A stretch of DNA of 64,000 nt from Chloroflexota bacterium (lineage in GTDB: Bacteria > Chloroflexota > Limnocylindria > P2-11E). The position numbers were made by a program, and so were the translations under genes. The notes beneath the pieces were generated by a model. It was not told the DNA's origin. It saw only the letters and a list, made by a program, of their open reading frames with translations, and searched no databases. Positions 1-36,136 of the stretch are shown piece after piece (positions within the stretch are counted from its first letter, which is position 1; each line of letters begins with the position of its first letter). Location of the stretch: contig VBDX01000134.1 of assembly GCA_005881885.1 (NCBI GenBank), positions 4,534-68,533 of the forward strand. The letters run 5' to 3'.

Positions 1-2328
1 CGTCTCTTCAACGAGACCAAGGAGGCACTCGCACAGCAGACCGCAACGAGCGACATCCTGAAGGTCATCGCACGATCACCGACAGACGTTCAGCCGGTAC
101 TCGACGCGATCGCCGAAAACGCCGCCCGGGTTTGCGGCGCGAGCGACGCCCACGTGTATCGCGTCGACGGTGCAGTCCTGATGCAGTGGGCGCACTACGG
201 ACCGATTCCCGGGCTCGACGCCGGCGAGGCGCTGCCTCTCAGCCGCGAGTCCCTGATTGGCCGCTGCATCGTCGACCGAAGGACGATTCACATTCGCGAT
301 GCCGCTGCGGAGCTCGATCCCGCCGACTATCCGATCAGCGTCGATCTCCAGCGCCGCTGGGGCTACCGGACATCCCTCTCGGTGCCTCTGCTTCGTCACG
401 GCGTCGCGATCGGTGGTATCGCCATCCGCCGGATGGAGGTCGAGCCGTTCTCCCTGAAGCAGATCGAGCTTCTCGAGACCTTCGCCGCTCAGGCGGTCAT
501 CGCCATCGAGAACGTGCGTCTCTTCAACGAGACCAAGGAAGCACTCGAGCAGCAGACCGCGATCGCGGACGTGCTCAAGACGATCAGCCGCTCCGCGTTC
601 GATCTCCGGCCCGTCCTCGACGTCGTGCTTGAGAATGCGGTCCGCCTCGCCGGTGCCGATATTGGTTGGCTCTCGCGTGTCGAGAGCGAGCGGTTCCAGA
701 CGATCGCGTATAGCAGCAGCTTCCCGGCAGATGTCCGCGAGGCGCTCGCGAGAGACCGCGCAGCAGGCCATTTCGGCGGCGACTGGCGACCGTTCGGGTC
801 CGAGAGTGGCGTGATGGGCACGGTCCTCGAGCGCCGAACGACCGTTCAGATCGCAGACGCGAAAGCCGACCCGATCCTCGGGAAGTCGCTCGTCGTCCGC
901 TTGACCGAATCGCGTGCCGTTCTCGGAGTGCCAATGCTGCGGGAAGGCGTCGTCATCGGAGGCGTTGTGCTGGCCCGATACGACGTCCGGCCGTTCAACG
1001 AGCGCGATGTTGAGCTCGTCCAGACGTTTGCGGACCAAGCAGCCATTGCGATCGAGAATGTTCGACTCTTCGACGAAACGCGCGCTGCCCTCGAACGCGA
1101 GACGGCGGTAGGCAACGTCCTCAAGACGCTCAGCCGGACCGTCTTCGATCTCGAGCCTGCGCTGGAGGCCGTGGTCGAGAACGCCGCGCGCCTGGCGGAC
1201 GCGGATGTCGCCTGGATGACGAAGCAAGTCGACGGCTTGAACTACGACTGGGGTGCTCGCTATGCGAAATCGGGCGATCCCGATGTGATCTTTGGACAGC
1301 GGGCGTTCGGGCGCAACACGCTCTATGTCGAAGGGTCGGTCATGAACCGGGTCCTTGCGGAACGGCGCACGCTCCACGTGCCGGACATGCAAGCGGAGCC
1401 CGACCTACTGTCGAAATCGAGAGTCGTCCGAGAGACCAGCTCGCGCTCCGTGCTCGGCGTCCCCGTGCTCAGCGAAAGCGAGGTCCTTGGAGCGATCGTC
1501 CTCGGGCGACTCGCGGTCCGACCCTTCTCGGATCGCGAGATCCAGCTCGTGGAGACGTTCGCCGATCAGGCGGCGATCGCGATCCAGAACGTGCGTCTGT
1601 TCAACGAGATTCAGGACAAGAGCCGCCAGCTCGAGGTCGCGAGCCGGCACAAGAGCGAGTTCCTTGCGAACATGAGCCATGAACTCCGGACCCCCCTCAA
1701 TGCCATCATCGGGTTCTCCGAGGTCCTCCTCGAGCGGATGTTCGGCGAGGTCAACACCAAGCAAGAGGACTACTTGCGCGACATCCTCGGGTCGGGCCGC
1801 CATCTGCTCACGCTCATCAACGACATCTTGGATCTTTCGAAGATCGAAGCGGGACGAATGGAGCTCGAGCGAAGCATCTTCTCACTGCGGACGGCACTGG
1901 AGAACGGCGTCACGATGGTGCGCGAGCGCGCCGGCCGTCACGACATCGCTATCGCCATCGATCTCGGGGAGGGCCTCGAGGAGGTCGCTGGCGACGAGCG
2001 CAAAATCAAGCAGGTCATCTACAACCTGCTTTCGAACGCCGTGAAGTTCACACCGGACGGCGGAAGCGTGAACGTGACCGCGGCGCGCGAGAACGGCGCG
2101 GCCACCGTGACCGTTCGCGACACCGGCATCGGGATAGCCCCGGAGGATCAGGAGCGGATCTTCGAGGAATTCAGCCAGGTCGGCCGCGATCCGGAACGAT
2201 CGCGCGAGGGGACCGGCCTTGGGCTCACCCTCTCGAAGCGCTTCGTGGAGTTGCACGGCGGAACGATCAAGGTCGAGAGCGCGCCCGGCCAGGGCAGCGC
2301 GTTCACGTTTACGCTGCCGCAACCATGA
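1..2328 (+). CDS. Multi-GAF sensor histidine kinase, 5'-partial. The reading frame is open from position 1, upstream of the listed ATG at 154
   Basis: Repeated GAF modules joined by a recurring linker helix ([30 protein letters not shown]). HisKA H-box [18 protein letters not shown]. HATPase_c motifs [22 protein letters not shown]. The frame continues to the window start. Confidence 0.85.
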
Positions 2329-2699
2329 CCCGGATCCTCCTCGTCGAAGACAACGAAAAGAACATGAAGCTCGCGCGGGACCTGCTCGCGTACAACGGGC
2401 ACACCGTCTTCGAAGCCACGACCGGCGAAGCGGCTGTGGCGACGGCAACGAAGGAGCTGCCCGACCTCGTCCTGATGGACATTCAGCTCCCGGGCATCGA
2501 CGGCATCGAGGCGCTGCGCCGGATCCGCGCAGACGGCAAGGCCTCGCGCATCCCCGTGGTCGCGTTGACCGCCTCCGTGATGGCCGACGATCGCGAGCGC
2601 TTCGACAAAGCCGGCTTCGACGGATTCCTCGCGAAGCCCATCGACGTCAAGACGTTCAACGACCAAGTCATGCAGCTCATCGCGAAGGGACGCGTATGA
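2325..2699 (+). CDS. Single-domain CheY-like response regulator receiver
   Basis: 124 aa. [10 protein letters not shown]...[13 protein letters not shown]...ALTAS...KPI receiver motifs. ATGA overlap with the kinase stop. Confidence 0.85.
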
Positions 2700-4279
2700 G
2701 CGACCGGCCTGCCCGCATCCTCGCGGTCGATGACAAGCCGGAGAACATTCGCCTGCTGGAGGCGGTCCTCGCGCCATCCGGTTACGAGGTGATCGCGGCA
2801 TCGAGCGGCGACGAGGCCATCGTCAAGGTCCGCGAGCAAACCCCCGACTTGATCCTCACCGACATCGTGATGCCGGGCATGACTGGCTACGAGCTCTGCC
2901 GCCGGCTGCGAGCCGACCCGGCGACGGCCTTCCTGCCGATCGTGACTCTGACCGCCAGCGGTGGCGAAGAAAAGCGCGAAGCTCTTGACGCCGGTGCGGA
3001 CGACTTCGTCGCCAAGCCTTTCGACAAGACGGAGCTCCTTGCTCGCGTGCGCTCGCTGCTGCGCATCAAGCGGTACTACGACGATCTGAACGACGCGCTC
3101 GACCGCCAGACCGCGATCGGGGACGTTCTGCGCACGATCGGCTCGTCGGCATTCGACATCGAGCCCGTCCTTCATTCGGTCGCGCAGCACGCCGCCAGGC
3201 TCTGCGGCGCCGAGAACGTGGTCATCTGGCGCACGACGGGCACCGGCTACCGCCTCTGGGTGGCCCAGGAAGTACGTGACGACTTCATGCGCATCGTCGC
3301 CGACCGTGAGATCCCGATCGGGCCGGACACGATCGTCGGCCGGGCGCACCTCGAGAAGCGGCCGGTCCAGGTGCCCGACATCAGCGAGTACTACCGCGGG
3401 GCGAGCGGACCCGCCGCCGAGATCGCACGGATCGGCGCCTACCGAACGCTCCTCGCCGTGCCGCTCATTCGTGACGATCAGGTCCTCGGCGTCCTGTCGC
3501 TCACACACACCCAGGTCCAGCCGTTCACTGAAGATCAGGTCGCTCTCGTCCGCACGTTCGCCGACCAGGCCGCGATCGCGATCGCGAACGCTGACCTCTT
3601 CGATACGGTCGAGCGTCAACGACAGCAGCTTTCCCGGTTCCTCTCACCGCAGATCGCCGCCCTCATCACCAGCGACGAAGGAGCGAAGATGCTGGAAGGC
3701 CATCGGCGCCAGATCACCGTCGTCTTCCTGGATCTGCGCGGCTTCACGGCCTTTGCGGAGACGGCCGAGCCCGAGGAGGTCCTCGGAGTTCTCCGCGAGT
3801 ACCAGAAGGCGATGGGCGAGCTCATCGTCGCGCACCAGGGCACCCTCGAGCACTTCGCCGGCGACGGGATGATGGTGTGGTTCAACGATCCGCTGCCGGT
3901 CCCGCAGCACGAGCTGCAGGCGGTCCGGATGGCCTGCTCCATGCGCGAGCGGTTCGACGAGCTGGCCAATGCCTGGAACAAGAAGGGTTACGTGCTCGGG
4001 TTCGGCGTCGGCGTCGCGACTGGCTATGCCACGCTCGGACGCATCGGCTTCGAGGGGCGGTACGACTACGGCGCGATCGGCAACGTGGTCATCCTCGCCC
4101 AGAGGTTGTCGGCGGAGGCCAAGGCCGGACAGATCCTCCTGAGCCAGCGCGTCCAGGCCGCCGTCGACCAGGAAGCCGAGACGACCTCCGTAGGCGAGCT
4201 CACCCTCAAGGGTTTCACTCGGCCCGTCCCGGCATTCGACGCGCGGTCCGTGAAGACGCCGGCACCCGTTCGCTCCTGA
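2696..4279 (+). CDS. Response-regulator receiver - GAF - class III adenylate/guanylate cyclase fusion
   Basis: N-terminal receiver (ILAVDDKPENIRLL, LILTDIVMPGMTG, KPF). GAF domain with the same linker motif as the kinase. C-terminal CYCc (ITVVFLDLRGFTAF...HFAGDGMMVWFNDP). ATG at 2696 overlaps the CheY stop (ATGA). The listed ORF start at 2219 is an upstream in-frame artefact. Confidence 0.85.
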   Translation: MSDRPARILAVDDKPENIRLLEAVLAPSGYEVIAASSGDEAIVKVREQTPDLILTDIVMPGMTGYELCRRLRADPATAFLPIVTLTASGGEEKREALDAGADDFVAKPFDKTELLARVRSLLRIKRYYDDLNDALDRQTAIGDVLRTIGSSAFDIEPVLHSVAQHAARLCGAENVVIWRTTGTGYRLWVAQEVRDDFMRIVADREIPIGPDTIVGRAHLEKRPVQVPDISEYYRGASGPAAEIARIGAYRTLLAVPLIRDDQVLGVLSLTHTQVQPFTEDQVALVRTFADQAAIAIANADLFDTVERQRQQLSRFLSPQIAALITSDEGAKMLEGHRRQITVVFLDLRGFTAFAETAEPEEVLGVLREYQKAMGELIVAHQGTLEHFAGDGMMVWFNDPLPVPQHELQAVRMACSMRERFDELANAWNKKGYVLGFGVGVATGYATLGRIGFEGRYDYGAIGNVVILAQRLSAEAKAGQILLSQRVQAAVDQEAETTSVGELTLKGFTRPVPAFDARSVKTPAPVRS

Positions 4280-8948: not shown

Positions 8949-9385
8949 TCCTCGTCGATGCCGAAGTCCTGCGCGCCCTCCCAGAGGGTGAGCCGTCCGA
9001 CCTCCGCGAGTCGCTCGTTGCCTTCAACGACGGTCGCGAAGTGATTCCCGGCGAGCTGACCCACCTTGCTCGCGAAGAGGGTCGAACCGTACGGAAAAAG
9101 GATCTCCATCTCCGAAATCCCGCCCGGATAGACGAGGATCTCGCCCGGTGCCGGATGACTCGTGTGATTCTCGTACTCGACACCGAGGCGCTTGGAGCCC
9201 ATCGGGACCCAGGTCGCCTCGCCGCTCCAGCGCACGTGTAGCAGCTTGCTTCGCAGGGGAAGGAGCTTGCGTATCGCGGCGGTCGTCTTCGGCGCCGCCT
9301 GCTCCTCGAGACGCGCCCGGAAGGTGAACGGGCCCGCGGTGATCCGGAGCATCCGCATCGCGGGCGTACGATACCGGCCGCTCAT
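8945..9385 (-). CDS. Cyclophilin-like-fold protein (DUF3830-like) common in ureide clusters. An alternative start at 9352 is possible
   Basis: MLRITAGPFTFRARLEEQAAPKTTAAIRKLLPL... A purine-rich GGAAAGGG sits 5 nt upstream of ATG 9383-9385. Stop overlaps the allantoinase start. Confidence 0.5.
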   Translation of the reverse strand: MSGRYRTPAMRMLRITAGPFTFRARLEEQAAPKTTAAIRKLLPLRSKLLHVRWSGEATWVPMGSKRLGVEYENHTSHPAPGEILVYPGGISEMEILFPYGSTLFASKVGQLAGNHFATVVEGNERLAEVGRLTLWEGAQDFGIDEE

Positions 9386-9677
9386 GGCGGCCCTTTCCAC
9401 CCACGTGCTGGACACGGCGACCGGCCGTCCGGCCGCAGGCGTCGCCGTCGCCCTCGAACGTGGGGGGAACGTGGTCGCACGCGGCACGACCGACGCGGAC
9501 GGCCGCATCAGCGAGCTCGCGTCGTCGCTCGCGCCCGGCCGCTACGAGCTCGTCTTCGAGCTGGCCGGCGGCTTCTTCCGCCGTGTGGCGCTCGAGATCG
9601 AGATCGGAAGCGAACCCACATACCACGTCCCGCTGCTCGTCACCCCGTTCGGCGTCACGAGCTACCGCGGCTCGTGA
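9384..9677 (+). CDS. hiuH: 5-hydroxyisourate hydrolase (transthyretin-like)
   Basis: LSTHVLDTATGRPAAGV N-terminus and the C-terminal YRGS signature. The listed ORF start at 9192 is upstream junk. Confidence 0.85.
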   Translation: MAALSTHVLDTATGRPAAGVAVALERGGNVVARGTTDADGRISELASSLAPGRYELVFELAGGFFRRVALEIEIGSEPTYHVPLLVTPFGVTSYRGS

Positions 9678-10117
9678 TGCGCATCGCGCGGGCGGATCTC
9701 GACGCCATTTTCGAGCGCGCGCCCGGCCTCGCCGAGCGCGTCCGTGGTGAGGACGCCGACGCGATCATCGCATCCGCGCGTGCCGCGCTCGCGCGGATGA
9801 GCGAGGCCGAGCGGATCGCGGTGCTGAACGCGCATCCCCGGATCGGAGCGGATGTGAGATCCCTCTCCGCGGCATCTCGCCGCGAGCAAGGACGCGCCGC
9901 CAGCGACGCGACGCATCAACACCTTCGTCGCTTGAACGACGAGTACGAGCGCAAATTCGGCTTCCGCTTCGTGGTCTTCGTGCATGGGCGTTCGAAGGTC
10001 GAGATCGTCCGGGTCTTCGAGGAGCGACTCAGGCGCGCGAAAGCGCACGAGCTTGCGACGGGTATCGAGGAGTTCCTCGCCATCGCCCACGACCGCTTGC
10101 TGGGAGTGCCACGGTGA
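9674..10117 (+). CDS. uraD: OHCU decarboxylase
   Basis: LNAHPRIG and YERKFGFRFVVFV motifs. GTGA/ATGA overlap with the hiuH stop. Confidence 0.85.
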   Translation: MMRIARADLDAIFERAPGLAERVRGEDADAIIASARAALARMSEAERIAVLNAHPRIGADVRSLSAASRREQGRAASDATHQHLRRLNDEYERKFGFRFVVFVHGRSKVEIVRVFEERLRRAKAHELATGIEEFLAIAHDRLLGVPR

Positions 10118-10965
10118 CGTCGACCGAGATCAGCTACGGCAAGGCGCGCGTCGTCTTCTATCGCCTCGCCGGACGTGAGGCTCCGCCACTTGCCGCGTCC
10201 GTCGACATCGACGTCTTCGGCGAGCGGTTCATCTCGGCGTACACCGAAGGCGATAACCGGGCCGTCGTCGCGACCGACACGATGAAGAACTTCGTATACG
10301 CGATGGCCGCCGAGTACGCCGGAAACACGCTCCTGGGACTCTGCGCGTTCGTCGGCCGCAGGTTTCTTGCGACCTACCCGGTGATGGAGGCGCTCCGTGT
10401 CTCTGCGCGCGAGGTGCCGCTCGACGCCGCTTCCGGTGAGCATGGGCCGAGCGAGGTCCTTTTCCGCTCGACGAGAGGCGACGGCGCGGTCGCGCGGGTC
10501 TCGCTCGACGTCGACGCCGGCGAGCCTCGGGTCACCGGCGCTCAGAGCGGCTGGGAAGGCATGGTCCTCGTGAAGACCACCGGGAGCTCGTTCGCCGCGT
10601 TCGCCCGTGACGATTACACGACCCTCCCCGAGCTCATCGATCGCCCGCTGACCATCCATCTCGACGCGTACTGGCGCTACGCGGATCTGCGCGACGGGAT
10701 CGCGGAGGGCGTCGGTTTTTTCGGACCGCGCGCGGTGCGCGACGAGATCGAGCGCACGTTCCACGAGTTCAACAGCCGGTCGATCCAGCATCTCGTGCAC
10801 GAGATGGGGACGCGCTTGCTCGCCGCGCATCCACAGCTCGCGGAAGCGGAGTTCGTCGCGGAGAACCACACGCCCGACCACGTGCGCGACGGCGCAGGCG
10901 GTGTGAAGGTGTTCGCCCAAGCGCGTGGCACGTTCGGGAAGATCGGCCTAGTCCTGCGGCGGTGA
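10114..10965 (+). CDS. uox: Urate oxidase (uricase)
   Basis: Tandem T-fold with YGKARVVFYR and VVATDTMKNFVY motifs. GTG start overlaps the uraD stop. Confidence 0.85.
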   Translation: MTSTEISYGKARVVFYRLAGREAPPLAASVDIDVFGERFISAYTEGDNRAVVATDTMKNFVYAMAAEYAGNTLLGLCAFVGRRFLATYPVMEALRVSAREVPLDAASGEHGPSEVLFRSTRGDGAVARVSLDVDAGEPRVTGAQSGWEGMVLVKTTGSSFAAFARDDYTTLPELIDRPLTIHLDAYWRYADLRDGIAEGVGFFGPRAVRDEIERTFHEFNSRSIQHLVHEMGTRLLAAHPQLAEAEFVAENHTPDHVRDGAGGVKVFAQARGTFGKIGLVLRR

Positions 10966-11114
10966 GGCGGAGGTCGGATTACGGGGTTTCATCTCAAGGG
11001 TAGACTCGGACGGTAGCCAAACGGAAAAAGCTCACTGGTCCTGCGCGCGTCCTGGTCATAACCGATCAACCGCTCGCGAACCTTATTGCCCTCACTCTCA
11101 ACCATGGGATTTAC

Positions 11115-11747
11115 GTGACGCGCACGGTGGCAACGGCGGAGGCGGGGCTCAACGAGCTTCGTGAGTGGCGCCCGCACCTCCTCTTGGTGGACATCGACCA
11201 GGAACGCGCCGAATCGCTCGACTTCATCGGCCAGCGCATCGCGAATCGCCGGATCCCGACGATCGCGCTGACCATCCGAGGCGATCTCAAAACCAAGCTC
11301 GCCGCATTCGATCATGGCGCCGACGACATCGTCACGGTGCCCTTCGCTCCCGAGGAGCTGCTCGCGCGCGTGCTCGCTCTCACGCGGCGCACGTACGGAG
11401 ATGCGGTGCCGTTCGCACCGGCGATCAAGGTGGCGGGCCTCGAGATCGACCTCCTCGAGCAACGCGTCAAGGCGGGAGCCTCAGAGGTTCGGCTGACCTC
11501 ACTCGAGCTTTCGCTCTTGTATTTGCTTGCATCGAACCCCGGGCAGACCCTGGCTCGGGACGAGATTCTCGATGCGCTCTGGGGCGCCGACTACGTCGCC
11601 GAGAGCAACGTCGTGGATCGTCACATTCGCAATCTCCGCAAAAAGCTCAGGGAAAACGGGCGCCGGCCCCGCTTCATCGGTACGGTCCCCAGAAAGGGCT
11701 ACCGCTTCCTGGGACGAAGTGATCGTCTTCATGAGTCTGCTTCATGA
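11115..11747 (+). CDS. Atypical OmpR-family response regulator (orphan). The conserved receiver N-terminus continues in frame upstream to about 11043, with no canonical start codon
   Basis: C-terminal winged-helix domain (VAGLEIDLLEQRV...LTSLELSLLYLLASNPGQTLARDEILDALWG...VDRHIRNLRKKL...GYRF). Upstream in-frame KRKKLTGPARVLVITDQPLANLIALTLNHG is paralogous to the N-terminus of the next gene. The receiver lacks the acidic DD pair and the conserved Lys (DDIVTVPF). Confidence 0.7.
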   Translation: MTRTVATAEAGLNELREWRPHLLLVDIDQERAESLDFIGQRIANRRIPTIALTIRGDLKTKLAAFDHGADDIVTVPFAPEELLARVLALTRRTYGDAVPFAPAIKVAGLEIDLLEQRVKAGASEVRLTSLELSLLYLLASNPGQTLARDEILDALWGADYVAESNVVDRHIRNLRKKLRENGRRPRFIGTVPRKGYRFLGRSDRLHESAS

Positions 11748-11777
11748 CTCATCGCAATTGGCGCGTACACCTGATGC

Positions 11778-12533
11778 GTGCCGGCAGCCAAAAGGGAGCG
11801 CCAGGAGAGTGAAGGACGTTCGGGACCCCGGGTCCTGATCGTCATGAGCGAGTCCATCAGCAATCTCGTCGCGCTGACGCTTCAGCACGGGCGCTACGAG
11901 TCCAGGAGGACCATCGATGCGGATGAGTGCCGCCAGCTGATCCGCGAGTGGGAGCCGCAGCTCGCCTTTATCGACCTCGACATCTACCCAAATTTCATCG
12001 ACGTCTTCCACCGCGAACAGGCGGTGGTGCCGACGCCGATCCTCGCGTTCACGAGAAAGCGCGATACCGCCCTCAAGATGAGTGCGTTCGAGCGCGGGGT
12101 CGACGACATCATCGAGGTGCCTTTCACGCTCGATGAGATCGTCGCACGTCCGTACGCGCTCATGCGACGCGTCCACCGCATCGACGTCCCGCTCGTGCCC
12201 AAAATCAGGCTGGACGGGCTCGAGGTCGACCTCATCGAGCAGCGGGTCCGTGTCGGCGGTAGGGAACTTTCGCTGACACCGATCCAACAGACCCTGCTCT
12301 ACCTGCTCGCCGCAAACGCGGGAGAGGTGCTGAGCCGCGAGGAGCTCCTGACGAGCATCTGGGGCGGCGAGTTCGAGATCGAGAGCAACGTCGTCGACCG
12401 CCACATCCGCGAGCTGCGAGTGAAGCTCGGCGACGACTGGCGCACGCCGCAGTTCATCGAGACAATGGCCGGCAAGGGCTACCGGTTCAAGTCGCAGGCC
12501 GCGGCGGATCGCGGCGGCGAAGCCGCGAAGTGA
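11778..12533 (+). CDS. Atypical OmpR-family response regulator (orphan), paralogue of the preceding gene
   Basis: Receiver-like N-terminus (RVLIVMSESISNLVALTL...LAFIDLD...VDDIIEVPF) followed by OmpR-type wHTH (LEVDLIEQRVRVGGRELSLTPIQQTLLYLL...VDRHIRELRVKL...GYRF). Confidence 0.8.
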   Translation: MPAAKRERQESEGRSGPRVLIVMSESISNLVALTLQHGRYESRRTIDADECRQLIREWEPQLAFIDLDIYPNFIDVFHREQAVVPTPILAFTRKRDTALKMSAFERGVDDIIEVPFTLDEIVARPYALMRRVHRIDVPLVPKIRLDGLEVDLIEQRVRVGGRELSLTPIQQTLLYLLAANAGEVLSREELLTSIWGGEFEIESNVVDRHIRELRVKLGDDWRTPQFIETMAGKGYRFKSQAAADRGGEAAK

Positions 12534-12648
12534 GGTTGCACCCCCGCTAAAGCGCGCTGCGCTGTATGACCACAGGAAATGACACATGTCGCGTAGGGTG
12601 ATAAATCTGCAAGACACCGCGGGGGCGGTGATCGGCGCGCATGCTTGA

Positions 12649-13005
12649 GAACGCGTTGGGGAGGCGAGGTACCTGTCGACTCGAAGCATCGTCCATTGGG
12701 AATGCCAGTCGCCTGAGCACCGCGCTCTCCGGTCTCGCCACGGAAACGGCGGGCTCACGATCCACGACGGAGCGTGGGCGTACTGCGACGGGGCGGGCTC
12801 GGACGACGCGCACCGCTGGTCCGCGACCGGGGGCCTGCCGCTCGAATCGCTCGTGCGCTGGACGACGCCCAACGGCGCACCCGCGGACGTACACGCCGCA
12901 GCGCCCGTGAACGGCGACCGGCCGACGCCCCAATTCGCCGCCCGGCCGACGAACGGGACCACCGCGAGGACCACGAGGAAGACGACCGGAGTCCGCCGGA
13001 CCTAG
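12649..13005 (+). CDS. Cryptic ORF with strong GC3 bias and no ATG/GTG/TTG start. It is in frame with the small ORF 12586-12648 through one TGA (possible pseudogene or unusual start)
   Basis: The frame with the stop at 13003-13005 has markedly higher third-position GC than the two listed overlapping ORFs. Encodes ...HWECQSPEHRALR...GLTIHDGAWAYCDGAGSDDAHRWSATGGLPLESLVRW... Confidence 0.3.
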   Translation, partial: ERVGEARYLSTRSIVHWECQSPEHRALRSRHGNGGLTIHDGAWAYCDGAGSDDAHRWSATGGLPLESLVRWTTPNGAPADVHAAAPVNGDRPTPQFAARPTNGTTARTTRKTTGVRRT

Positions 13006-13255
13006 CCAGTCAGGAGCGATCGAAGACTACCCGCATCCGCCACCCGGACGAGTTCGGCGATGCGTGGCTGCGCGGCATCGATCCACTGCCATCACCGCGG
13101 TTTTGGACGTGATGCCTGACGCGGCCTCTCGGGCGGAGCAGGCCGGGTCAGTATCTCGAGCGGATCGATCACGCTCACCGGGTTGCGCTGCGCCGTGCGA
13201 GGCGACCTCGCCGCCATATCCTCACCGGCACGCGCGACGACGGGGAGGTCGAGCG

Positions 13256-13540
13256 ATGTCCGACATGAGCCGCAACGAATATCTTCGCGGAGCGATGGCC
13301 GCCGGGGCGGCGTCCTTCGCGGAGTCCTTGACCGGCGAACGAGCCTCAGTGGACGGATCCGCTACTGCGCAGGCGCTCGACCACGTGCAGCGGCTGGTCG
13401 ACGCCGCGAGCGACCGCCTGACCGGCGCGCTCGCCGATGCCGGTCAGATCGAGAGCGAGGTGGTCACCGCGCTGCACACGATCCGCGCCCGCGCGCTCGC
13501 GGTCGCCGCGCAGGTGGACGCGGCGCTGCCACTCGGCTAA
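13256..13540 (+). CDS. Small hypothetical protein (about 95 aa)
   Basis: GGGGAGG RBS 7-8 nt upstream of ATG 13256. High GC3. MSDMSRNEYLRGAMAAGAASFAESL... Confidence 0.45.
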   Translation: MSDMSRNEYLRGAMAAGAASFAESLTGERASVDGSATAQALDHVQRLVDAASDRLTGALADAGQIESEVVTALHTIRARALAVAAQVDAALPLG

Positions 13541-13544
13541 GGCC

Positions 13545-14810
13545 TCACTCCGGGGTGCGCGGAAGTGCGGTCCCGATGACCTCGCGGATCGATCCGAGGG
13601 CGTGCTCGCGCACGTAGGCCGCGAGCCCCTCGATCACCCGTAGGGGCGCCAGCGGATCGGCGAACGTCGCGGTCCCGACCTGCACCGACGACGCGCCGGC
13701 CATCAGGAACTCGAGCGCATCCTGCGCGCTCGTCACGCCCCCCGCGCCTATGACCGGGATCGAAACGGCCTGCGCGACCTGATAGGTGATGTGGACGGCG
13801 ATCGGGCGGATCGCCGGCCCCGAAAGGCCACCGCTCCCAGTGCCGAGCATCGGGCGCCGACGCTCGGTGTCGATGCGCATCCCGAGCACGGTGTTGATCG
13901 CGGTGAGCCCGTCGGCGCCCGCTTCCTCGCAGGCGCGCGCGACGGCGACCACGTCGGGCGCGTTCGGGGTGAGCTTTACGATCACCGGGAGGTCCGTTTC
14001 GGCTTTCACCGCTCGCGTCACGTCGGCAGCCAGGTCCGGGTCGCAACCGAAGAGCATTCCGCCCCTCACGTTCGGGCACGACACGTTGAGCTCGTACGCG
14101 ACGACACCGGGCGTCCCCGTCATCTCGTGCACCACGTACACGTAGTCCTCGACGCTGTATCCGGCGACGTTCACGATCACCGGAACGCCGAGCTCGGCCC
14201 ACGCTCGGCCGTACCGGCGCGCGACCTCGACCGCGCCGGGGTTCTCCAGGCCGATCGAGTTGAGGATGCCCGACGGCGTCTCCGCGATGCGGTACTGCGG
14301 ATTGCCCGGTCGCGGGTTCGGGGTCGTTCCCTTGTTCACGATCGCGCCGAGCCTCGAGACGTCGATGAGCTCGGCGTATTCCACGCCCTGGCCAAACGTG
14401 CCCGATGCCGTCATGACCGGATTCTTCAGGCGCAGACCGCGCGCCGCCTCGACCGAGAGATCGACGCCGCTCTCGGGATAGCGCACACGCTTCGCAGCGC
14501 GGGGGTCTTCCTCGCTCGGCCCCTCGTGGGATCGCGATGTTCCGCGCGCCAGGGGCCGCTCGCTCGGAAGACCCCCACGCTGCTCCTCGGTTGCCAGGGC
14601 ATCGCGGAGTCTCGTTCCGAGTTCGCTCGGCGCGCGGTCCTCCTCCGGTTCCCCCGTCGCCGCTTCGAGCAGGCTCGCGTCGTCGAGTTCCGCGAGCTCC
14701 GCCGCATCCTCCTCGGACTCGCCGTCAGCTGCATCGTCCAGTGACTCCTCTATGGATTTGCTGACGTCGATGGAGCGCTCGACTTTCTTTCGGAAACGGC
14801 GCCAGGGCAT
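13545..14810 (-). CDS. pyrD: Dihydroorotate dehydrogenase catalytic subunit (class 1B) with an acidic N-terminal extension of about 110 aa
   Basis: GLRLKNPVMTASGTFG, NTVLGMRID and IPVIGAGGV motifs. Start ATG overlaps the pyrK stop (ATGA). An internal GTG at VDLSVE is an alternative start. Confidence 0.9.
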   Translation of the reverse strand: MPWRRFRKKVERSIDVSKSIEESLDDAADGESEEDAAELAELDDASLLEAATGEPEEDRAPSELGTRLRDALATEEQRGGLPSERPLARGTSRSHEGPSEEDPRAAKRVRYPESGVDLSVEAARGLRLKNPVMTASGTFGQGVEYAELIDVSRLGAIVNKGTTPNPRPGNPQYRIAETPSGILNSIGLENPGAVEVARRYGRAWAELGVPVIVNVAGYSVEDYVYVVHEMTGTPGVVAYELNVSCPNVRGGMLFGCDPDLAADVTRAVKAETDLPVIVKLTPNAPDVVAVARACEEAGADGLTAINTVLGMRIDTERRRPMLGTGSGGLSGPAIRPIAVHITYQVAQAVSIPVIGAGGVTSAQDALEFLMAGASSVQVGTATFADPLAPLRVIEGLAAYVREHALGSIREVIGTALPRTPE

Positions 14811-15652
14811 CAGGCGAGGATCCCCACCGTCGCGGGCTCACCCTGCTCGAAGGCGATGTCGCCGAGCGCGAAGACCGGGCCCTCGCGGCAAACGCGCGCG
14901 TTCCCCTGCGCGGTCACGACGACGCACGCGCGGCACACGCCCATCGCGCATCCCATGTGCTGCTCGACCGCGATCTGCGCGTCGAGGAGCGGACGCCGCC
15001 CCGGATACGCCGACGACGCGCGGTCCGCCTCGTCCCGCAGGCGCCCGAGCGCGGCGAGCATCGGCCACGGACCGCACGCGCACAGCTGATCGGCCCACTC
15101 GAGCAGCGGGCCGATCGCGTCGGTGACCCGTCCGGTGATCCCGAACGATCCGTCCTCCGTGGTGGTGACGTACTCGACGGTCGCTGGAAGCAGGTCGCTC
15201 GGCCAGAGGTGCGCGACGGATCGGCCGCCCATGAGCAGCGTGGCGTTTCGTCGGGCCGATTCTTGCTCGGCCAGCACGCGCATCGGCGCGATCCCGGTGC
15301 CGCCGGCGACGAGCAGGAGGTTCCGCGTCGAGCGGTGCACGACGAACGCAGACCCGAGCGGACCGAGCAAATCCAGCGCGTCGCCCTCGCGTCGCGCGGC
15401 GATCCATTCCCCGCCCGGGCCGAGCGGCTTCACGAGGAGCTCGATCTCGCCCGCCCTGCGGTCGATGCGGTTGAACGAATAGGGGCGGCGGAGGAGCGGC
15501 TCGAACGAAAGACCGGGCCGCACGTGGACGAACTGCCCCGCGCGGGCCTGCGCGGCGATCTCCGGGGCGGCGATCCGGAGCACCGTCCCGAGCTGACCGA
15601 TCTCGGTCGATGCGACGACGCGGCCTTCCTCGAGCAGCACTCCGGAAGACAA
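14810..15652 (-). CDS. pyrK: Dihydroorotate dehydrogenase electron-transfer subunit
   Basis: FAD/NAD-binding ferredoxin-reductase-like fold (RPYSF, GGTGIAP) and a C-terminal Cys cluster (CAMGVCRACVV). Confidence 0.85.
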   Translation of the reverse strand: MSSGVLLEEGRVVASTEIGQLGTVLRIAAPEIAAQARAGQFVHVRPGLSFEPLLRRPYSFNRIDRRAGEIELLVKPLGPGGEWIAARREGDALDLLGPLGSAFVVHRSTRNLLLVAGGTGIAPMRVLAEQESARRNATLLMGGRSVAHLWPSDLLPATVEYVTTTEDGSFGITGRVTDAIGPLLEWADQLCACGPWPMLAALGRLRDEADRASSAYPGRRPLLDAQIAVEQHMGCAMGVCRACVVVTAQGNARVCREGPVFALGDIAFEQGEPATVGILA

Positions 15653-15718
15653 GTCTCGCAGACAACGAAAGAGGGAGGCGCGGCGCGCCTCCCTCTCGAA
15701 CGCGCGTGATCGCTCGGG

Positions 15719-16264
15719 CTAGGTGAGCCGATTCTCAGCGAAGTCGAAGTTGAACGAGATCCACTCCCCGTTTGCGCCCAGCACCGAGTACTCGACCTCC
15801 CGGGCGCGTAGGCCGGAACCCGCCATCGCGACCTCATCACCGCCCGATCCGGTGGTCGCCTGAATGACGCCAGCGATCGCGCCGGGAACGCCCCCTCCGA
15901 GGTGCGGCTGGGGGCCCGTCGACTGGGCTCGCGTCGACGGACTGAACGAAGAGATGAGAATGTCCGTGAACTTGTACTTGAGGAAGTCGACCTGGTCCTT
16001 GCCCGCCTTGCGCAAGGTGAGCACGGCCTCCTTGAGGTGCGCGCCTGTCGCGAGGTACTTGAACAGGAGCGGCGAGGACTTGTCGATCTTGACCACGAAG
16101 CTGAAATCCTGCGCCGAGACCTTTCCCGTCCCTCCGCCGCCGCCGAACGCGCCGGGCTGGGTGGCGCCCCAGCTGAACGAGAGCACTTCGATCTCGTCCT
16201 TGTGCTTGGAGTCGAGGCTCTCGCCCTTGATGCCTTCGATCTTGAGAAATGAGTCGTATGCCAT
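15719..16264 (-). CDS. hcp: Hcp1-family protein (type VI secretion tube protein family), orphan
   Basis: MAYDSFLKIEGIKGESLDSKHKDEIEVLSFSWG...GGGGGTGKVSAQDFSFVVKIDKSSPLLFKYLATGAHL...LTLRKAG closely follows the Hcp1 consensus. GGAGGA RBS. No other T6SS genes in the window. Confidence 0.8.
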   Translation of the reverse strand: MAYDSFLKIEGIKGESLDSKHKDEIEVLSFSWGATQPGAFGGGGGTGKVSAQDFSFVVKIDKSSPLLFKYLATGAHLKEAVLTLRKAGKDQVDFLKYKFTDILISSFSPSTRAQSTGPQPHLGGGVPGAIAGVIQATTGSGGDEVAMAGSGLRAREVEYSVLGANGEWISFNFDFAENRLT

Positions 16265-16271
16265 CCCTTAA

Positions 16272-16793
16272 TTAATCCTCCGTGAACAGCGTCAGTGCGA
16301 ACTTCGCCGTGCCGTTTCCACCGAAGCCGTAGATATCCTGCTGGGCCGTGTAGCTGCCTCGTGCGCCGGTGTACTTCCCGGTGCCGCCCACGATCGCGTA
16401 GGTCCGCTCCGCTCCGACGCCAGAGCCAATGCCGACGATCGAGCCGGCGACGAGGTTGAGCGTGTGGACCTCGACCGTATTGCCGTGCCCCGCGAGCGTG
16501 AAGACCGCCGACGAGAAGTCGCCGACCTTGTCGCCCTCGAGTCCGTTTAGCAGATCGCCGTAGACCGCGTAGCGGTCGCCGGCCTGTGGGAGCTCGCCGA
16601 ACTTGAGGTCCGCCGAGTGCGCGTACCAGCCGCGCCCGTAGAGCTCGGTCGTGCGCGGGGTCGCACGCGTGGATACGCCCACCGCGGGACGCGAGTCCGT
16701 ACGGCCAGCGAAGATCGCGAAGCCGGCGGCGATGCCGGCGAGACCGCGCGTGATGACGCTGCGTCTGGGCAAGTGAGGAACGCCGTCTCTCAT
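16272..16793 (-). CDS. Tat-secreted dirigent-like beta-barrel protein
   Basis: Start chosen at MRDGVPHLPRRSVITRGLAGIAAGFAIFAG (twin-arginine signal) with a GGGAGGGAGG RBS. C-terminal AIVGGTGKYTGARGSY matches the dirigent VVGGTGKFRxARGY signature. The listed ORF extends to 17033 through junk. Confidence 0.65.
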   Translation of the reverse strand: MRDGVPHLPRRSVITRGLAGIAAGFAIFAGRTDSRPAVGVSTRATPRTTELYGRGWYAHSADLKFGELPQAGDRYAVYGDLLNGLEGDKVGDFSSAVFTLAGHGNTVEVHTLNLVAGSIVGIGSGVGAERTYAIVGGTGKYTGARGSYTAQQDIYGFGGNGTAKFALTLFTED

Positions 16794-16869
16794 GCCTCCC
16801 TCCCTTCGGGCAGGCGAGTGTGCGGTCAGGCCAACCGCCAGCGCAACGGCCAGCGGTCGCAACATGCGA

Positions 16870-18417
16870 TCAGGAGGGCTGCACTCCATCGGCGAGCGTG
16901 AGTAGTCCAAGTTCGAACATGCGTCGCGCGACGGGCAGACCGGCCTGGACGAAGCGTTCGGTGTCGTCGCCTGCCGCACCCTCCGCGAGCGCTGCATCGA
17001 CGAGCGCCAGACGGAGCGGACGCCTTCCGTCAAGCTTCGACAAGAGAAGGACCGCGCGCGGCTCGATGCCGGCCCGGAAGGGAAGGCCGTCGTCCAAGGT
17101 CACCGCCATCTCGTGCACGCGAGGCCGGGCGGCCTCGAATCGGACCTGCTGCTCGAGCCTCATGGACGCCGCGGGAACGAGGATCGCCTCGAGCAGTCCG
17201 GCTTCCCCGATCCGGGCGAGGAAATCGTGCGCGGCGAACATGCGCTGAACGTGGTCGCTCGCGGGCCTCACGCCGCCCGGTGGCAGAACCTCGATCCGGA
17301 ACCAGTTCGGCCCCGCCGCTCGGCGGCGAAGCACGACCGAGCCGTAGGCTATCCCTCGGATACCGAGCTTGCCGTAATAGCTCATCCAGCCGTCGATCAG
17401 TTCCGCATATCGAATCGGGTCGCCGGCTTCGGTCTGATTCCAGCCCGCGGCCGTCTCGAGCGGCTCGTCGGTGCGGTAGTGAAGTAGCCAGGCGTCGCAG
17501 CCGCTCCCTTCGACCCATCGGCGCACCCGGGCCGCGGGGTCTCCGTCAGGATCCGCGATCCAGCTGATCGCCACGGTCGCGAATCCGCCCTCTTCGAGGT
17601 GGGCTGGGATCGAGCGGACGACCTGTTCGGACACGCTGTCGCCTGGGAGTCCGCTGTCGCGGTAGATGTACTCGGTCGCGGGCGAGATCACGTAGGGCGG
17701 ATTGCACACGATCACGTCGAACCGCTCGTCCCGAACCGGGTCGAACCAGCTCCCGAGACGCAGCTCCAGATTCCGAACGCCGTTCAGCTGTGCATTGAAT
17801 GCGGCGAAGCGCAGAGCCCGGGGACTGATGTCTGTCCCCAGGACGCGGTCGGCATGGGGTGCCGCGACCAGCGCGACGACGCCGCAGCCGGTGCCGAGAT
17901 CGAGGAGGCTCCGAGCGTCGGGCCGCACCGTCAGATACGCAAGCGTCACGGAGGGGCGGTGCACACCGGGAACGTGGTCGGGCGGCGCCTTCTCACCCGC
18001 GCGGAGACGGACGTCCGACGTGATGAGCAGCTCATCGTGCGGCACGATCCGCACAGACGGACGCACCACGCCACCGTCGGCGCTCGCGATCCCAAGCCGA
18101 GTCAGGTCCGTCACACCCAGCGGCGCGATCGCCGTCGCAACGTCGTCCTCGGGAACGTCGAGGTTCAGCACGAAGAGACGGATCAGCGCTGCCAAGCCAC
18201 CCCGGCCCTCGAGGCGACGAAGCTGCACCGGAATATCCCAGGAGCGTGAGAGAACCTCGCTGTGAGCGCCGAGGGCCTCACCGATGCGTTCGGCCTTGAA
18301 GCCCGCCTCATCAAGCATCTCGCGGAAGCGGAGCATGAGTTCGGGCTGATCCAGGGCGAGAGGCCCTTCCACCGCGCCGATGGTAGAGAAAGAGGTGGGG
18401 CGCCTTCGCTGCCCCAT
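16870..18417 (-). CDS. Large class I SAM-dependent methyltransferase (NPPY-type, HemK-like core with extra N- and C-terminal domains)
   Basis: LDLGTGCGVVAL (motif I) and VIVCNPPY (motif IV). 515 aa. Confidence 0.75.
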   Translation of the reverse strand: MGQRRRPTSFSTIGAVEGPLALDQPELMLRFREMLDEAGFKAERIGEALGAHSEVLSRSWDIPVQLRRLEGRGGLAALIRLFVLNLDVPEDDVATAIAPLGVTDLTRLGIASADGGVVRPSVRIVPHDELLITSDVRLRAGEKAPPDHVPGVHRPSVTLAYLTVRPDARSLLDLGTGCGVVALVAAPHADRVLGTDISPRALRFAAFNAQLNGVRNLELRLGSWFDPVRDERFDVIVCNPPYVISPATEYIYRDSGLPGDSVSEQVVRSIPAHLEEGGFATVAISWIADPDGDPAARVRRWVEGSGCDAWLLHYRTDEPLETAAGWNQTEAGDPIRYAELIDGWMSYYGKLGIRGIAYGSVVLRRRAAGPNWFRIEVLPPGGVRPASDHVQRMFAAHDFLARIGEAGLLEAILVPAASMRLEQQVRFEAARPRVHEMAVTLDDGLPFRAGIEPRAVLLLSKLDGRRPLRLALVDAALAEGAAGDDTERFVQAGLPVARRMFELGLLTLADGVQPS

Positions 18418-34911: not shown

Positions 34912-35907
34912 GTGGAGCAGATGAAGGCATTACATCGGAAACTCGCGCTCGGGCTCGCGATCGGCGTCGCTAGCGTGGGCATGTTCGGGGCGGCGGCGCT
35001 CGGCGCCTTTGGACTTGAGGTCTCCTCGAGCGTCGGCTCGGCGATCGCTCCCGTCGGCTCGGTGCTCGGCGCCGAGAAGCCGGACAAGTTCAAAGGGATC
35101 CTCGACGCTCTCGTGCAGAAGGGTGTCATCACCCAGCAGCAAGAAGACGCGATCCTCGCTGCGATGAAGGATGCGGCGGGCAAAGACTCCGCCCGCGTCC
35201 ACGTGGCGCACGATCTCTTCGGTGCCGCGGCTCAGTATCTCGGTACCACCGAGAAGGACCTGCGCGCGAAGCTCCCCGGCACGAGCCTTGGAAAGATCGC
35301 TGACGGTATGGCCCCCGCGAAGTCGCGTGCCGGGCTCGTCGCCGCGCTTACGACCGCGGCGAACGCCGACATCGACAAGGCCGTCGCCGACAAGAGGATC
35401 ACCGCCGACCAGGCGACGACCCTTCGGTCCAAGGTCGCCGGCGAGATCACCTCGCTCGTCGACCGGACCTGGCCGACGAAGCCGACTGCCGCCGTGCGGG
35501 CGCCGAATCTGAAGAGCTTCCTCGGCGAGATGTCGAAGACCGTTCAGACGTTCCTCGGACTTTCGGCAACGGACATCGCGACCGCGCTGCGGAACGGTCA
35601 GAGCCTGGGCGAGCTCGCGAACGCGACCAAGCCCAACGGTCGGGACAGTCTCATCGCCGCCCTGACGTTGAGCGCGAACACGCGGATCGACAAAGCCGCC
35701 GCTGACAAGAAGATCACGACCGATCAGGCGACCACCCTGAAGAGCAAGGTGGGCGCTGCAATCACGACCTTCGTCGACCGCAAGTTCCCGGTGCGGAGCT
35801 CGACGGAGCCCGCGTCGCCGGCGAACGGCACGACGCCGGCGGCGCCAACGACCACGAAGCCGACAACGCCGGCGAGCCCATCGCCGACGCCGAAAGAAGA
35901 TCGATAG
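34912..35907 (+). CDS. Secreted/anchored protein with two internal repeats of about 100 aa and a Pro/Thr-rich tail
   Basis: N-terminal hydrophobic segment. Repeats ...LVAALTTAANADIDKAVADKRITADQATTLRSKVAGEITSLVDRTWP / ...LIAALTLSANTRIDKAAADKKITTDQATTLKSKVGAAITTFVDRKFP. Confidence 0.6.
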   Translation: MEQMKALHRKLALGLAIGVASVGMFGAAALGAFGLEVSSSVGSAIAPVGSVLGAEKPDKFKGILDALVQKGVITQQQEDAILAAMKDAAGKDSARVHVAHDLFGAAAQYLGTTEKDLRAKLPGTSLGKIADGMAPAKSRAGLVAALTTAANADIDKAVADKRITADQATTLRSKVAGEITSLVDRTWPTKPTAAVRAPNLKSFLGEMSKTVQTFLGLSATDIATALRNGQSLGELANATKPNGRDSLIAALTLSANTRIDKAAADKKITTDQATTLKSKVGAAITTFVDRKFPVRSSTEPASPANGTTPAAPTTTKPTTPASPSPTPKEDR

Positions 35908-35938
35908 GAGCGGTACCGATCTCATTCCGCGCGAAGAC

Positions 35939-35967
35939 GCCGGGCGAAAGCCCGGCGTTCTTGTTGT
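35939..35967 (+). terminator. Rho-independent terminator after the repeat-protein gene
   Basis: GCCGGGC-GAAA-GCCCGGC perfect 7-bp stem with a GNRA loop, followed by GTTCTTGTTGT. Confidence 0.6.
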
Positions 35968-36136
35968 CAGCGGTATCCGTTCGGTCGCGAGTAGGAACGG
36001 GCATGCTCACCGGTCGTTGGACCTAACGCTGGGGAGACGGGGCGGAGGCGGAAGCATGTCGAACCCGCTCACACATGTCGCGACGCGAAGCGCCGGCGTT
36101 ATAGTCGGCGCGCCAGCGAGGGGCACGGAGTTGGGA

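Follow-up and report, generated by a model that had tools for sequence, protein, structure and literature searches.

A conserved tandem pair of OmpR/PhoB-type regulators with pseudo-receiver domains in Limnocylindria (Chloroflexota)

Introduction

How do two adjacent response regulators work when both have lost residues of the receiver active site and no histidine kinase lies beside them? The question is raised by two genes, here called A and B, in a 64,000-nucleotide stretch of contig VBDX01000134.1 (assembly GCA_005881885.1) from an uncultured soil Chloroflexota bacterium of the class Limnocylindria. This whole stretch is referred to as the window, and coordinates are those of the window unless another locus is named. 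The category to which A and B belong, that of atypical response regulators of the OmpR/PhoB type with a pseudo-receiver, is well known. An initial annotation, made from the letters of the window alone, had placed the pair among phosphorylation-independent orphan regulators of the GlnR/JadR1 kind. Here we describe the domains and active-site residues of the two proteins, their conservation as a pair, and fused relatives in which the receiver of A stands in front of a complete B. These observations suggest that A and B may be two partners of one regulatory unit.

Results

Domain architecture of A and B

The pair occupies two tandem genes on the + strand of the window (G+C 65-70%), with a uricase gene upstream and small open reading frames (ORFs), then pyrD, downstream. 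Domain limits follow HMMER and MAFFT alignments and AlphaFold2 (AF2) models.

11013-11747, + strand: gene A, 244 codons and a TGA stop, an OmpR-type regulator with a pseudo-receiver; the proposed start is the non-canonical GTA at 11013-11015
11043-11405, + strand: pseudo-receiver domain of A, residues 11-131
11421-11708, + strand: winged-helix DNA-binding domain of A, residues 137-232, with the recognition helix ESNVVDRHIRNLRKKL
11778-12533, + strand: gene B, GTG start, 251 codons and a TGA stop, an OmpR-type regulator with a pseudo-receiver more degenerate than that of A
11829-12176, + strand: pseudo-receiver domain of B, residues 18-133
12201-12488, + strand: winged-helix DNA-binding domain of B, residues 142-237, with the recognition helix ESNVVDRHIRELRVKL

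The C-terminal domains match Pfam Trans_reg_C (PF00486) with 87.5 bits for A and 85.9 bits for B (cut-off 26.2), which, together with the tandem layout on the + strand, confirms the initial description of two tandem OmpR-family regulators with normal winged helix-turn-helix domains. For Response_reg (PF00072), A scores 41.8 bits, above the cut-off, and B 20.7 bits, below the cut-off of 30.2. The AF2 models, single chains built on family alignments, nevertheless show a (beta-alpha)5 receiver followed by a winged helix in both proteins. In A (predicted local distance difference test score, pLDDT, 81.6; predicted template modelling score, pTM, 0.73) the receiver is complete and its beta1 strand spans residues 11-16, numbered from codon 11013. 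In B (pLDDT 79.8, pTM 0.73) the receiver has five strands and five helices, with pLDDT of about 80-90, despite its sub-cut-off Pfam score. A Foldseek search with the B model returned full-length OmpR-family structures, with RpaA, KdpE and MtrA at the top and CosR, VanR, PhoP and HP1043 also among the matches. With a C-terminal Trans_reg_C domain and an N-terminal receiver fold, A and B belong to the OmpR/PhoB family. The two proteins are 44% identical over 238 residues; the DNA-binding domains are more alike (52/96 identical, 54%) than the receivers (44/114, 39%).

Receiver active-site residues

A canonical, phosphorylatable receiver carries an acidic pair (DD), a phospho-acceptor aspartate (D), a threonine or serine (T) and a lysine (K). 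These positions were mapped by HMMER alignments to MtrA (2gwr), PrrA, KdpE and RpaA, and by a MAFFT alignment of 238 relatives (119 each of family A and family B) with CheY, PhoB and MtrA. The MtrA sequence in the latter was taken from the 2gwr match. Both mappings agree on the key residues without ambiguity.

Key codons of A, + strand: T17-D18 at 11061-11066; D60 at 11190-11192; D62 at 11196-11198; T87-I88 at 11271-11276; I106 at 11328-11330; V109 at 11337-11339
Key codons of B, + strand: M23-S24-E25 at 11844-11852; D66 at 11973-11975; D68 at 11979-11981; T92-R93 at 12051-12056; I111 at 12108-12110; V114 at 12117-12119

The K position is V109 in A (V 114, I 2, S 1, M 1 and L 1 among the 119 members of family A) and V114 in B (V 107, M 10, L 1 and I 1 in family B), and neither Lys nor Arg occupies it in any of the 238 relatives. 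The replacement of the lysine, which the initial annotation had asserted while allowing that differently placed gaps might bring the missing residues back, is thus borne out: neither HMMER nor MAFFT gave a gap placement that restores DD or K, and DDI..VPF falls on DDY..KPF column for column. The same annotation had considered the acidic pair replaced in both proteins. In B both residues are indeed gone, with M23 at DD1 (M in 117/119 of family B) and S24, followed by E25, at DD2 (N in 104/119, S in 7/119). A, however, has lost DD1 only (T17; V, I, T or A across family A) and keeps D18 at DD2, as do 114/119 of its relatives.

The phospho-acceptor Asp is kept, as had been noted, at D60 of A (Asp in 116/119) and D66 of B (Asp in 119/119). 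The residue at D+2 is also Asp in both proteins (D62 and D68), and the conserved Thr/Ser is kept as T87 and T92. The position after it, T+1, is I88 in A, variable across its family, and R93 in B, Arg in 119/119. At K-3, the position of the switch Tyr, both proteins have Ile (I106 and I111). Compared with a canonical receiver, A and B retain the Asp and the Thr and lack a full DD pair and the Lys. In the definitions of Bourret and colleagues (PMC12632262), a pseudo-receiver or atypical response regulator is a recognisable receiver without at least one of DD, D, T and K. With K and one or both DD residues missing, both proteins are pseudo-receivers in this sense; because the Asp is retained, neither is an aspartate-less receiver (ALR), and the label "aspartate-less" given at first was wrong. 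As a speculation, the invariant Arg at T+1 of B, which stands beside the retained Asp and an acidic D+2, could take part in a charge cluster like that of the GlnR Asp.

A class-wide clade in Limnocylindria

In public metagenomes, A and B each have hundreds to thousands of clusters at 90% identity. For each protein, the best 120 of them are 64-95% identical to the query, and the named sources are all metagenome-assembled genomes (MAGs) of Chloroflexota or 'Candidatus Limnocylindria'. The substitutions hold in more than 100 clusters per family, all from the Chloroflexota class Limnocylindria. A scan of GTDB species representatives gave 21 loci, all in Chloroflexota/Limnocylindria MAGs but two contigs, L012 (DASPWX010000103.1, a Bathyarchaeia MAG) and L020 (DATLPP010000107.1, a 'Candidatus Udaeobacter' MAG). 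Both carry the same uricase-A-B synteny at about 70% identity and are probably mis-binned Limnocylindria contigs.

In a HMMER scan of 1.84 billion representative proteins, only 161 had E <= 1e-30. One signature is common to about 130 of the nearest clusters at 50% identity: a non-acidic DD1, a kept D, an acidic D+2, a kept T, mostly Arg at T+1, an aliphatic K-3, and V, I, M, L or A at the K position followed by Pro. In the same scan, canonical receivers (DD, D, T-A, Y, K-P) start only at E about 1e-33. None of the NCBIfam equivalog models (PhoB, MtrA, RpaB, NblR, KdpE, YycF and others) reached its curated cut-off; the best scores were 136.8 bits for PhoB (cut-off 296.2) and 130.7 bits for MtrA (cut-off 300), and other models scored lower. 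Among solved structures, the closest sequences are MtrA, KdpE, PrrA and RpaA (E 1e-30 to 1e-27); MtrA, KdpE and PrrA match A with E 1e-30 to 1e-28 and B with E 1e-25 to 1e-20. For GlnR of Mycobacterium tuberculosis (8hih), E is 1.4e-12 with A and 5.7e-12 with B. With GlnR at about 1e-12, far behind MtrA, KdpE and PrrA, the initial term "GlnR/JadR1-like" describes an analogy and not membership, and no sequence test that we ran supports equating A or B with GlnR, JadR1, HP1043, ChxR, NblR, MtrA or PhoB. The A and B families are a distinct, uncharacterised, class-wide clade. Its definition by Lys to aliphatic, Tyr to aliphatic and Arg at T+1 is new here.

Conservation of the pair and its genomic context

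A lies directly upstream of B in 19/19 loci with enough flanking sequence (tblastn). In loci whose B shares 69% identity or more with that of the window, the pair sits between a uricase operon and pyrD, in the following order.

Upstream part: GAF-HisKA kinase, stand-alone receiver, receiver-GAF-cyclase; then amidohydrolases (- strand)
Continuing: HIU hydrolase, OHCU decarboxylase, uricase, A, B, small ORFs; then pyrD, pyrK, carB, carA, pyrC (- strand)

In divergent lineages, with B 58-65% identical, the pair follows hrcA-grpE-dnaK. Because the tandem persists in two different genomic contexts, the conserved unit is the pair and not its neighbourhood, and the adjacency is ancient. The duplication proposed by the initial annotation is therefore correct in that the paralogues stand in tandem, and incorrect if taken as a merely local event, the pair being ancient and class-wide. 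The genomic context was also considered as a guide to the regulon and rejected: the uricase/pyrD synteny is limited to the closer lineages, and the divergent ones have the pair after dnaK. Two lineages carry a third paralogue between A and B (L008, 9135-9908; L023, 9191-10000). It is more degenerate, 29-35% identical to A and B by BLASTP, with weak Response_reg and Trans_reg_C scores. What is new in this arrangement is an obligate tandem of two pseudo-receiver regulators with the same DNA-reading helix.

Histidine kinases in the window

The 64 kb window encodes a single histidine kinase, a GAF-GAF-GAF-HisKA-HATPase protein at 1-2328, 8.7 kb upstream of the pair; a scan of all remaining called genes found no other. 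Behind it lie a stand-alone receiver (about 2320-2700) and a receiver-GAF-adenylate/guanylate cyclase, and the whole cluster spans 1-4279. Every uricase-context locus has this cluster in synteny with the pair, with purine-catabolism genes between them, and no histidine kinase is found near the pair in the dnaK-context loci. A and B are orphan response regulators, with no kinase in the operon or adjoining it. The initial statement that no histidine kinase is adjacent agrees with this, the sole kinase of the window having receiver genes of its own. A Ser/Thr protein kinase is encoded at 35741-38041, which is worth noting since GlnR is regulated by Ser/Thr phosphorylation.

Fused relatives, recognition helices and dimerisation face

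Two fusion proteins, P0016 (388 aa) and P0009 (378 aa), 83% identical to each other, join the receiver of A, without its DNA-binding domain, to a full-length B through a linker of about 20 residues. Two independent soil assemblies encode the very same P0016, and three independent soil assemblies carry a fusion overall. In each, the fused gene takes the place of the pair.

Fusion loci, directly downstream of dnaK: L097, 583-1749; L098, 583-1749; L099, 430-1566

With 2 clusters among 853 hits, this fusion of the two receivers and one winged helix (REC_A-REC_B-wHTH) is rare but maintained. In five further clusters (P0360, P0370, P0397, P0422 and P0493), a canonical receiver that keeps DD, D, S/T and K is fused in front of an A-like pseudo-receiver-winged-helix module about 45% identical to A. 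The pseudo-receiver-winged-helix module thus repeatedly operates beside a second receiver-fold domain. Fusion variants that point to receiver-receiver pairing are likewise new here. A kinship of the fused canonical receivers with the stand-alone receiver beside the GAF kinase of the window was considered and rejected, the identity being generic (23-44%). One gene of the canonical-receiver type (L100, 7319-8485) has a KaiC-like ATPase, a Crp-type regulator and a stand-alone receiver in its vicinity.

A and B have near-identical recognition helices, with the common form SNVVDRH(I/V)R.LR.KL, and should therefore read the same half-site. The segment covering alpha4-beta5-alpha5, GxDD...PF..(E/D)E(L/I)(L/V)AR..AL.RR, is conserved in both proteins.

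Promoter-like blocks and the start of gene A

A similar block of sequence precedes each gene.

10978-11006, + strand: promoter-like block upstream of A; ATTACG at 10978-10983, a 17-nt spacer and TAGACT at 11001-11006, with 6 bases to GTA 11013
11744-11771, + strand: promoter-like block upstream of B; ATGACT at 11744-11749, a 16-nt spacer and TACACC at 11766-11771, with 6 bases to GTG 11778

Across 16 genome loci and 53 distinct metagenome sequences, the block of A is conserved as nucleotides and shows no 3-base periodicity, and that of B reads ATGACA-N17-TAGACC-N6/7-GTG in 18/18 loci; in the window, its ATGACT overlaps the A stop TGA at 11745-11747. The two blocks align with each other base for base, with the consensus ATKACR, 16-17 nt, TAGAC(T/C), 6-7 nt and the first codon, which indicates that the promoter-like block was duplicated along with the gene. 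By their sequence, these blocks may act as promoters. With the box ending 6 nt before the first codon, the transcript is predicted to start at or next to that codon, which suggests leaderless mRNAs and a separate control of the two subunits. Across the window, 5 candidate starts have a TANNNT box 5-8 nt upstream where 0.9 would be expected, a suggestive but weak excess. The shared box GCGTAGAC, considered as an operator, is not enriched (82 in the window with one mismatch allowed, 82.2 expected). Neither a conserved RNA structure upstream of A nor any Rfam match in 9000-17000 was found.

An inverted repeat, ATGAGTC-N8-GACTCAT at 11725-11752, lies across the A stop and the -35-like box of B in the window and its closest relative, L005; most other loci have CGTGA-GT-TCACG at the equivalent place, followed by TCATGAC. 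The repeat could be an operator or a weak terminator. Upstream of A, a 13-codon mini-ORF at 10962-11003 begins with a GTG overlapping the uricase stop (GTGA) and ends at the TAG within the -10-like box of A. It is probably incidental, because the frame relation differs in other loci. Read-through or coupling from uricase into A was rejected on the same observation, the frame relation between uricase and A differing among loci.

The frame of gene A, open from just past this stop TAG (11001-11003), contains no ATG, GTG or TTG before GTG 11115. GTG 11115 encodes V35, inside beta2 of A in the AF2 model, and a start there (a 210-residue ORF) would leave the protein without beta1 and alpha1. Gene callers do shorten A, giving 201-210 aa in the closest relatives, and most family members are truncated. 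At the codon aligned with the Met/Val of relatives that start with MKKNQLLGPARV, 61 distinct sequences have GTA 28, GTG 15, ATA 8, GTC 6, ATG 3 and CTT 1, so that 42/61 have GTA, ATA or GTC. The window and its closest relatives carry a further GTA one codon upstream of the aligned start codon. In 28/53 distinct metagenome sequences there is no in-frame ATG, GTG or TTG from the upstream stop to beta1. For B, the start codon is GTG in 18/18 loci.

The 43 sequences with a non-canonical start codon nevertheless keep K/R-K-N-Q-L-L in the next six codons, with entropies of 0.34, 0.57 and 1.00 by codon position, and their GPAR codons vary at third positions only. This pattern indicates that the N-terminal codons of A upstream of beta1 are under protein-level selection. 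CTG 11052, and TTG or GTG at 'RVL', were rejected as the sole start of A on the same ground, the upstream GPAR and KKNQLL codons varying at third positions. The N-terminus KRKKLTGP initially given for A lies downstream of the TAG at 11001-11003 and would be real only if the start is non-canonical, at GTA 11013. As for the basic N-terminal extension said to be shared by A and B, its basic character and the (G)P.RV junction are common to both, and a clear sequence homology is not.

Other features around the pair

About 1 kb past B, the interval 12534-13544 has no Pfam or Rfam match. Within it, a small ORF at 13256-13540 (94 aa) is kept at 54-100% identity in related loci; in L002, three small called genes occupy its place. 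A lone Hcp-like gene (15719-16264, - strand; T6SS_HCP, E 2e-33) stands between pyrK and a methyltransferase gene, within the string of pyrimidine-biosynthesis genes. It occurs in L001 and L006 and not in L002, and no other type VI secretion genes were seen.

Discussion

The explanation we favour, with a probability of roughly 0.55, is that A and B form a phosphorylation-independent pair that works together, with receivers likely heterodimerising on shared DNA sites. The two are ancient paralogous OmpR/PhoB-type factors that have kept the fold, the Asp and the Thr, with the Lys turned to Val and the Tyr of the Y-T switch to Ile. Of the metal-binding acidic pair, A has lost one residue and B both, and no cognate histidine kinase would drive the two proteins. 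The receivers would most likely pair through the alpha4-beta5-alpha5 face, the dimerisation surface of the family, and this pairing would put two winged helices of equal specificity on tandem half-sites. The output may then be set by the amount of each partner, or by some input to the receivers, rather than by phosphorylation of the Asp. Each gene having its own promoter-like box, the two subunits could be made from leaderless mRNAs and controlled separately. That the fusion persists in two diverged variants is an argument that the two receivers cooperate physically. The logic of an A:B unit is also plausible because of precedents, namely the BldM/WhiI heterodimer, for which such a logic was shown, CmrR/CmrT, for which it is suspected, and the part of the GlnR Asp in dimer formation.

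Several points weigh against a phosphorylation-independent heterodimer. A keeps DD2, D and T, and weak phosphorylation is possible. The models are of single chains only, and the A:B pairing itself is deduced rather than seen. The fusion is rare, as counted above, and drops the DNA-binding domain of A, so that a modulation of B by the receiver of A fits it as well as a symmetric heterodimer does. The conserved residues of the dimer face would equally allow homodimers. On the transcription side, a strict scan for sigma-70 promoters and terminators over 10800-13700 found nothing, and no target sites or regulon were identified.

In a different account, separate A and B homodimers compete for or divide the same sites, for example as activator and repressor, A and B make no direct contact, and adjacency reflects co-regulation only. 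Near-identical recognition helices, dimer-face residues conserved in each protein and a promoter-like box for each gene would all suit it, as would the fact that many atypical regulators are constitutive homodimers (PMC12632262). The REC_A-REC_B-wHTH fusion, however, with its two diverged variants, speaks for receivers that cooperate physically, and in the fusion lineage the DNA-binding domain of A is dispensable, which is at odds with competition at DNA. We regard separate homodimers as somewhat unlikely. Regulation by a distant kinase, such as the GAF-HisKA protein at 1-2328, acting on receivers that are weak rather than dead, we regard as improbable. It would explain why D60/D66 and T87/T92 are invariant and D18 is kept in A, and the GAF kinase cluster does accompany the pair in all uricase-context loci; moreover, phosphotransfer can in some cases survive a substitution at DD, T or K (PMC12632262). 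On the other hand, the Lys is replaced throughout, with no Lys or Arg in any member, B has no acidic pair for Mg2+, and a bulky T+1 residue, Arg in 119/119 of family B, is expected to obstruct access to the site (PMC12632262). The stand-alone receiver and the receiver-GAF-cyclase directly after the kinase are its obvious partners, and the pair persists in dnaK-context loci that have no such kinase cluster nearby. We infer that A and B do without phosphorylation.

It could also be supposed that gene A is a decaying pseudogene here and that B alone is functional, given the absence of ATG, GTG and TTG between TAG 11001 and GTG 11115 and the closest relatives called at only 201-210 aa. The frame of A is nonetheless unbroken and matches relatives from end to end at 63-95% identity, the 43 distinct sequences without a canonical start keep the amino acids of the six codons before GPAR, and the same start situation recurs in many species-level genomes. 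A pseudogene is very improbable and strongly disfavoured.

Comparison with known systems places the cooperating pair beside several atypical regulators without identifying it with any of them. GlnR is likewise an orphan OmpR-type protein with a degenerate phosphorylation pocket and a retained central Asp, and in GlnR and RamR this Asp serves dimer formation and not phosphorylation (PMC12632262). GlnR, however, is a single-gene homodimer of actinomycetes, whereas A and B are a paralogue pair in Chloroflexota and not its orthologues. BldM and WhiI of Streptomyces are two orphan regulators without kinase control whose heterodimer gives a combined output, a 'coincidence detector'. They belong to the NarL/FixJ family, their genes are non-adjacent and their heterodimer was shown experimentally, whereas the pairing of A with B is deduced from adjacency and fusion. 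In Clostridioides difficile, CmrR and CmrT are two co-encoded OmpR-family regulators, CmrT having a pseudo-receiver, and heterodimers have been detected (PMC12548384). There, the receiver of CmrR is canonical and the kinase CmrS lies in the operon, in contrast to A and B, which are both pseudo-receivers in a unit without a kinase.

HP1043 (HsrA), ChxR and CosR are orphans with a degenerate receiver and form active, constitutive dimers through part of alpha4-beta5-alpha5; they are single genes, each has lost different residues, and their similarity to A and B is at the family level only. MtrA (2gwr) aligns over its full length with 30% identity and the same domain order, but it has a complete DD/D/T/K set and a cognate kinase, MtrB, and the NCBIfam MtrA model gives A 131 bits and B 119 bits against a cut-off of 300. 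In Rec-Rec' proteins of the PleD type, the degenerate second receiver is an adaptor and dimerisation domain beside another receiver. This resembles the relatives with a canonical receiver in front of the pseudo-receiver-winged-helix module and the REC_A-REC_B-wHTH fusion; the output of PleD is a GGDEF domain rather than a winged helix, and in the window the two receivers are on separate proteins and both degenerate.

The start-codon anomaly of A is the part likeliest to surprise specialists. The known leaderless rule, established for mycobacterial mRNAs, is a 5' AUG or GUG (PMC9094748). That A and B form an obligate pseudo-receiver heterodimer in which A is translated from a leaderless mRNA beginning at a non-canonical codon is, as one combined proposal read from the sequences, doubtful. 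If true, ribosomes of Limnocylindria would start on a 5'-terminal RUN codon, beyond the mycobacterial AUG/GUG, and this could hold A low or limiting relative to B. Initiation at GUA, AUA or GUC on a leaderless mRNA, if real, would extend the rules known for how bacteria begin translation. The same data show that automated annotation truncates gene A in most genomes.

In conclusion, the A/B pair extends a known kind of regulator, the atypical response regulators such as GlnR, BldM/WhiI and CmrR/CmrT, by a new branch. The way in which pseudo-receivers are turned on and off is acknowledged to be an open question (PMC12632262), and this locus offers a clean natural system for it: a delimited clade whose members are paired, at times fused, and in some relatives joined to a canonical receiver in front. 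These features suggest that the module works through receiver-receiver pairing, and they supply concrete constructs for tests. The proteins of the pair are among the most conserved of an abundant uncultured soil class (65-95% identity, more than 1000 clusters), and from this high conservation in Limnocylindria A and B likely control something central.

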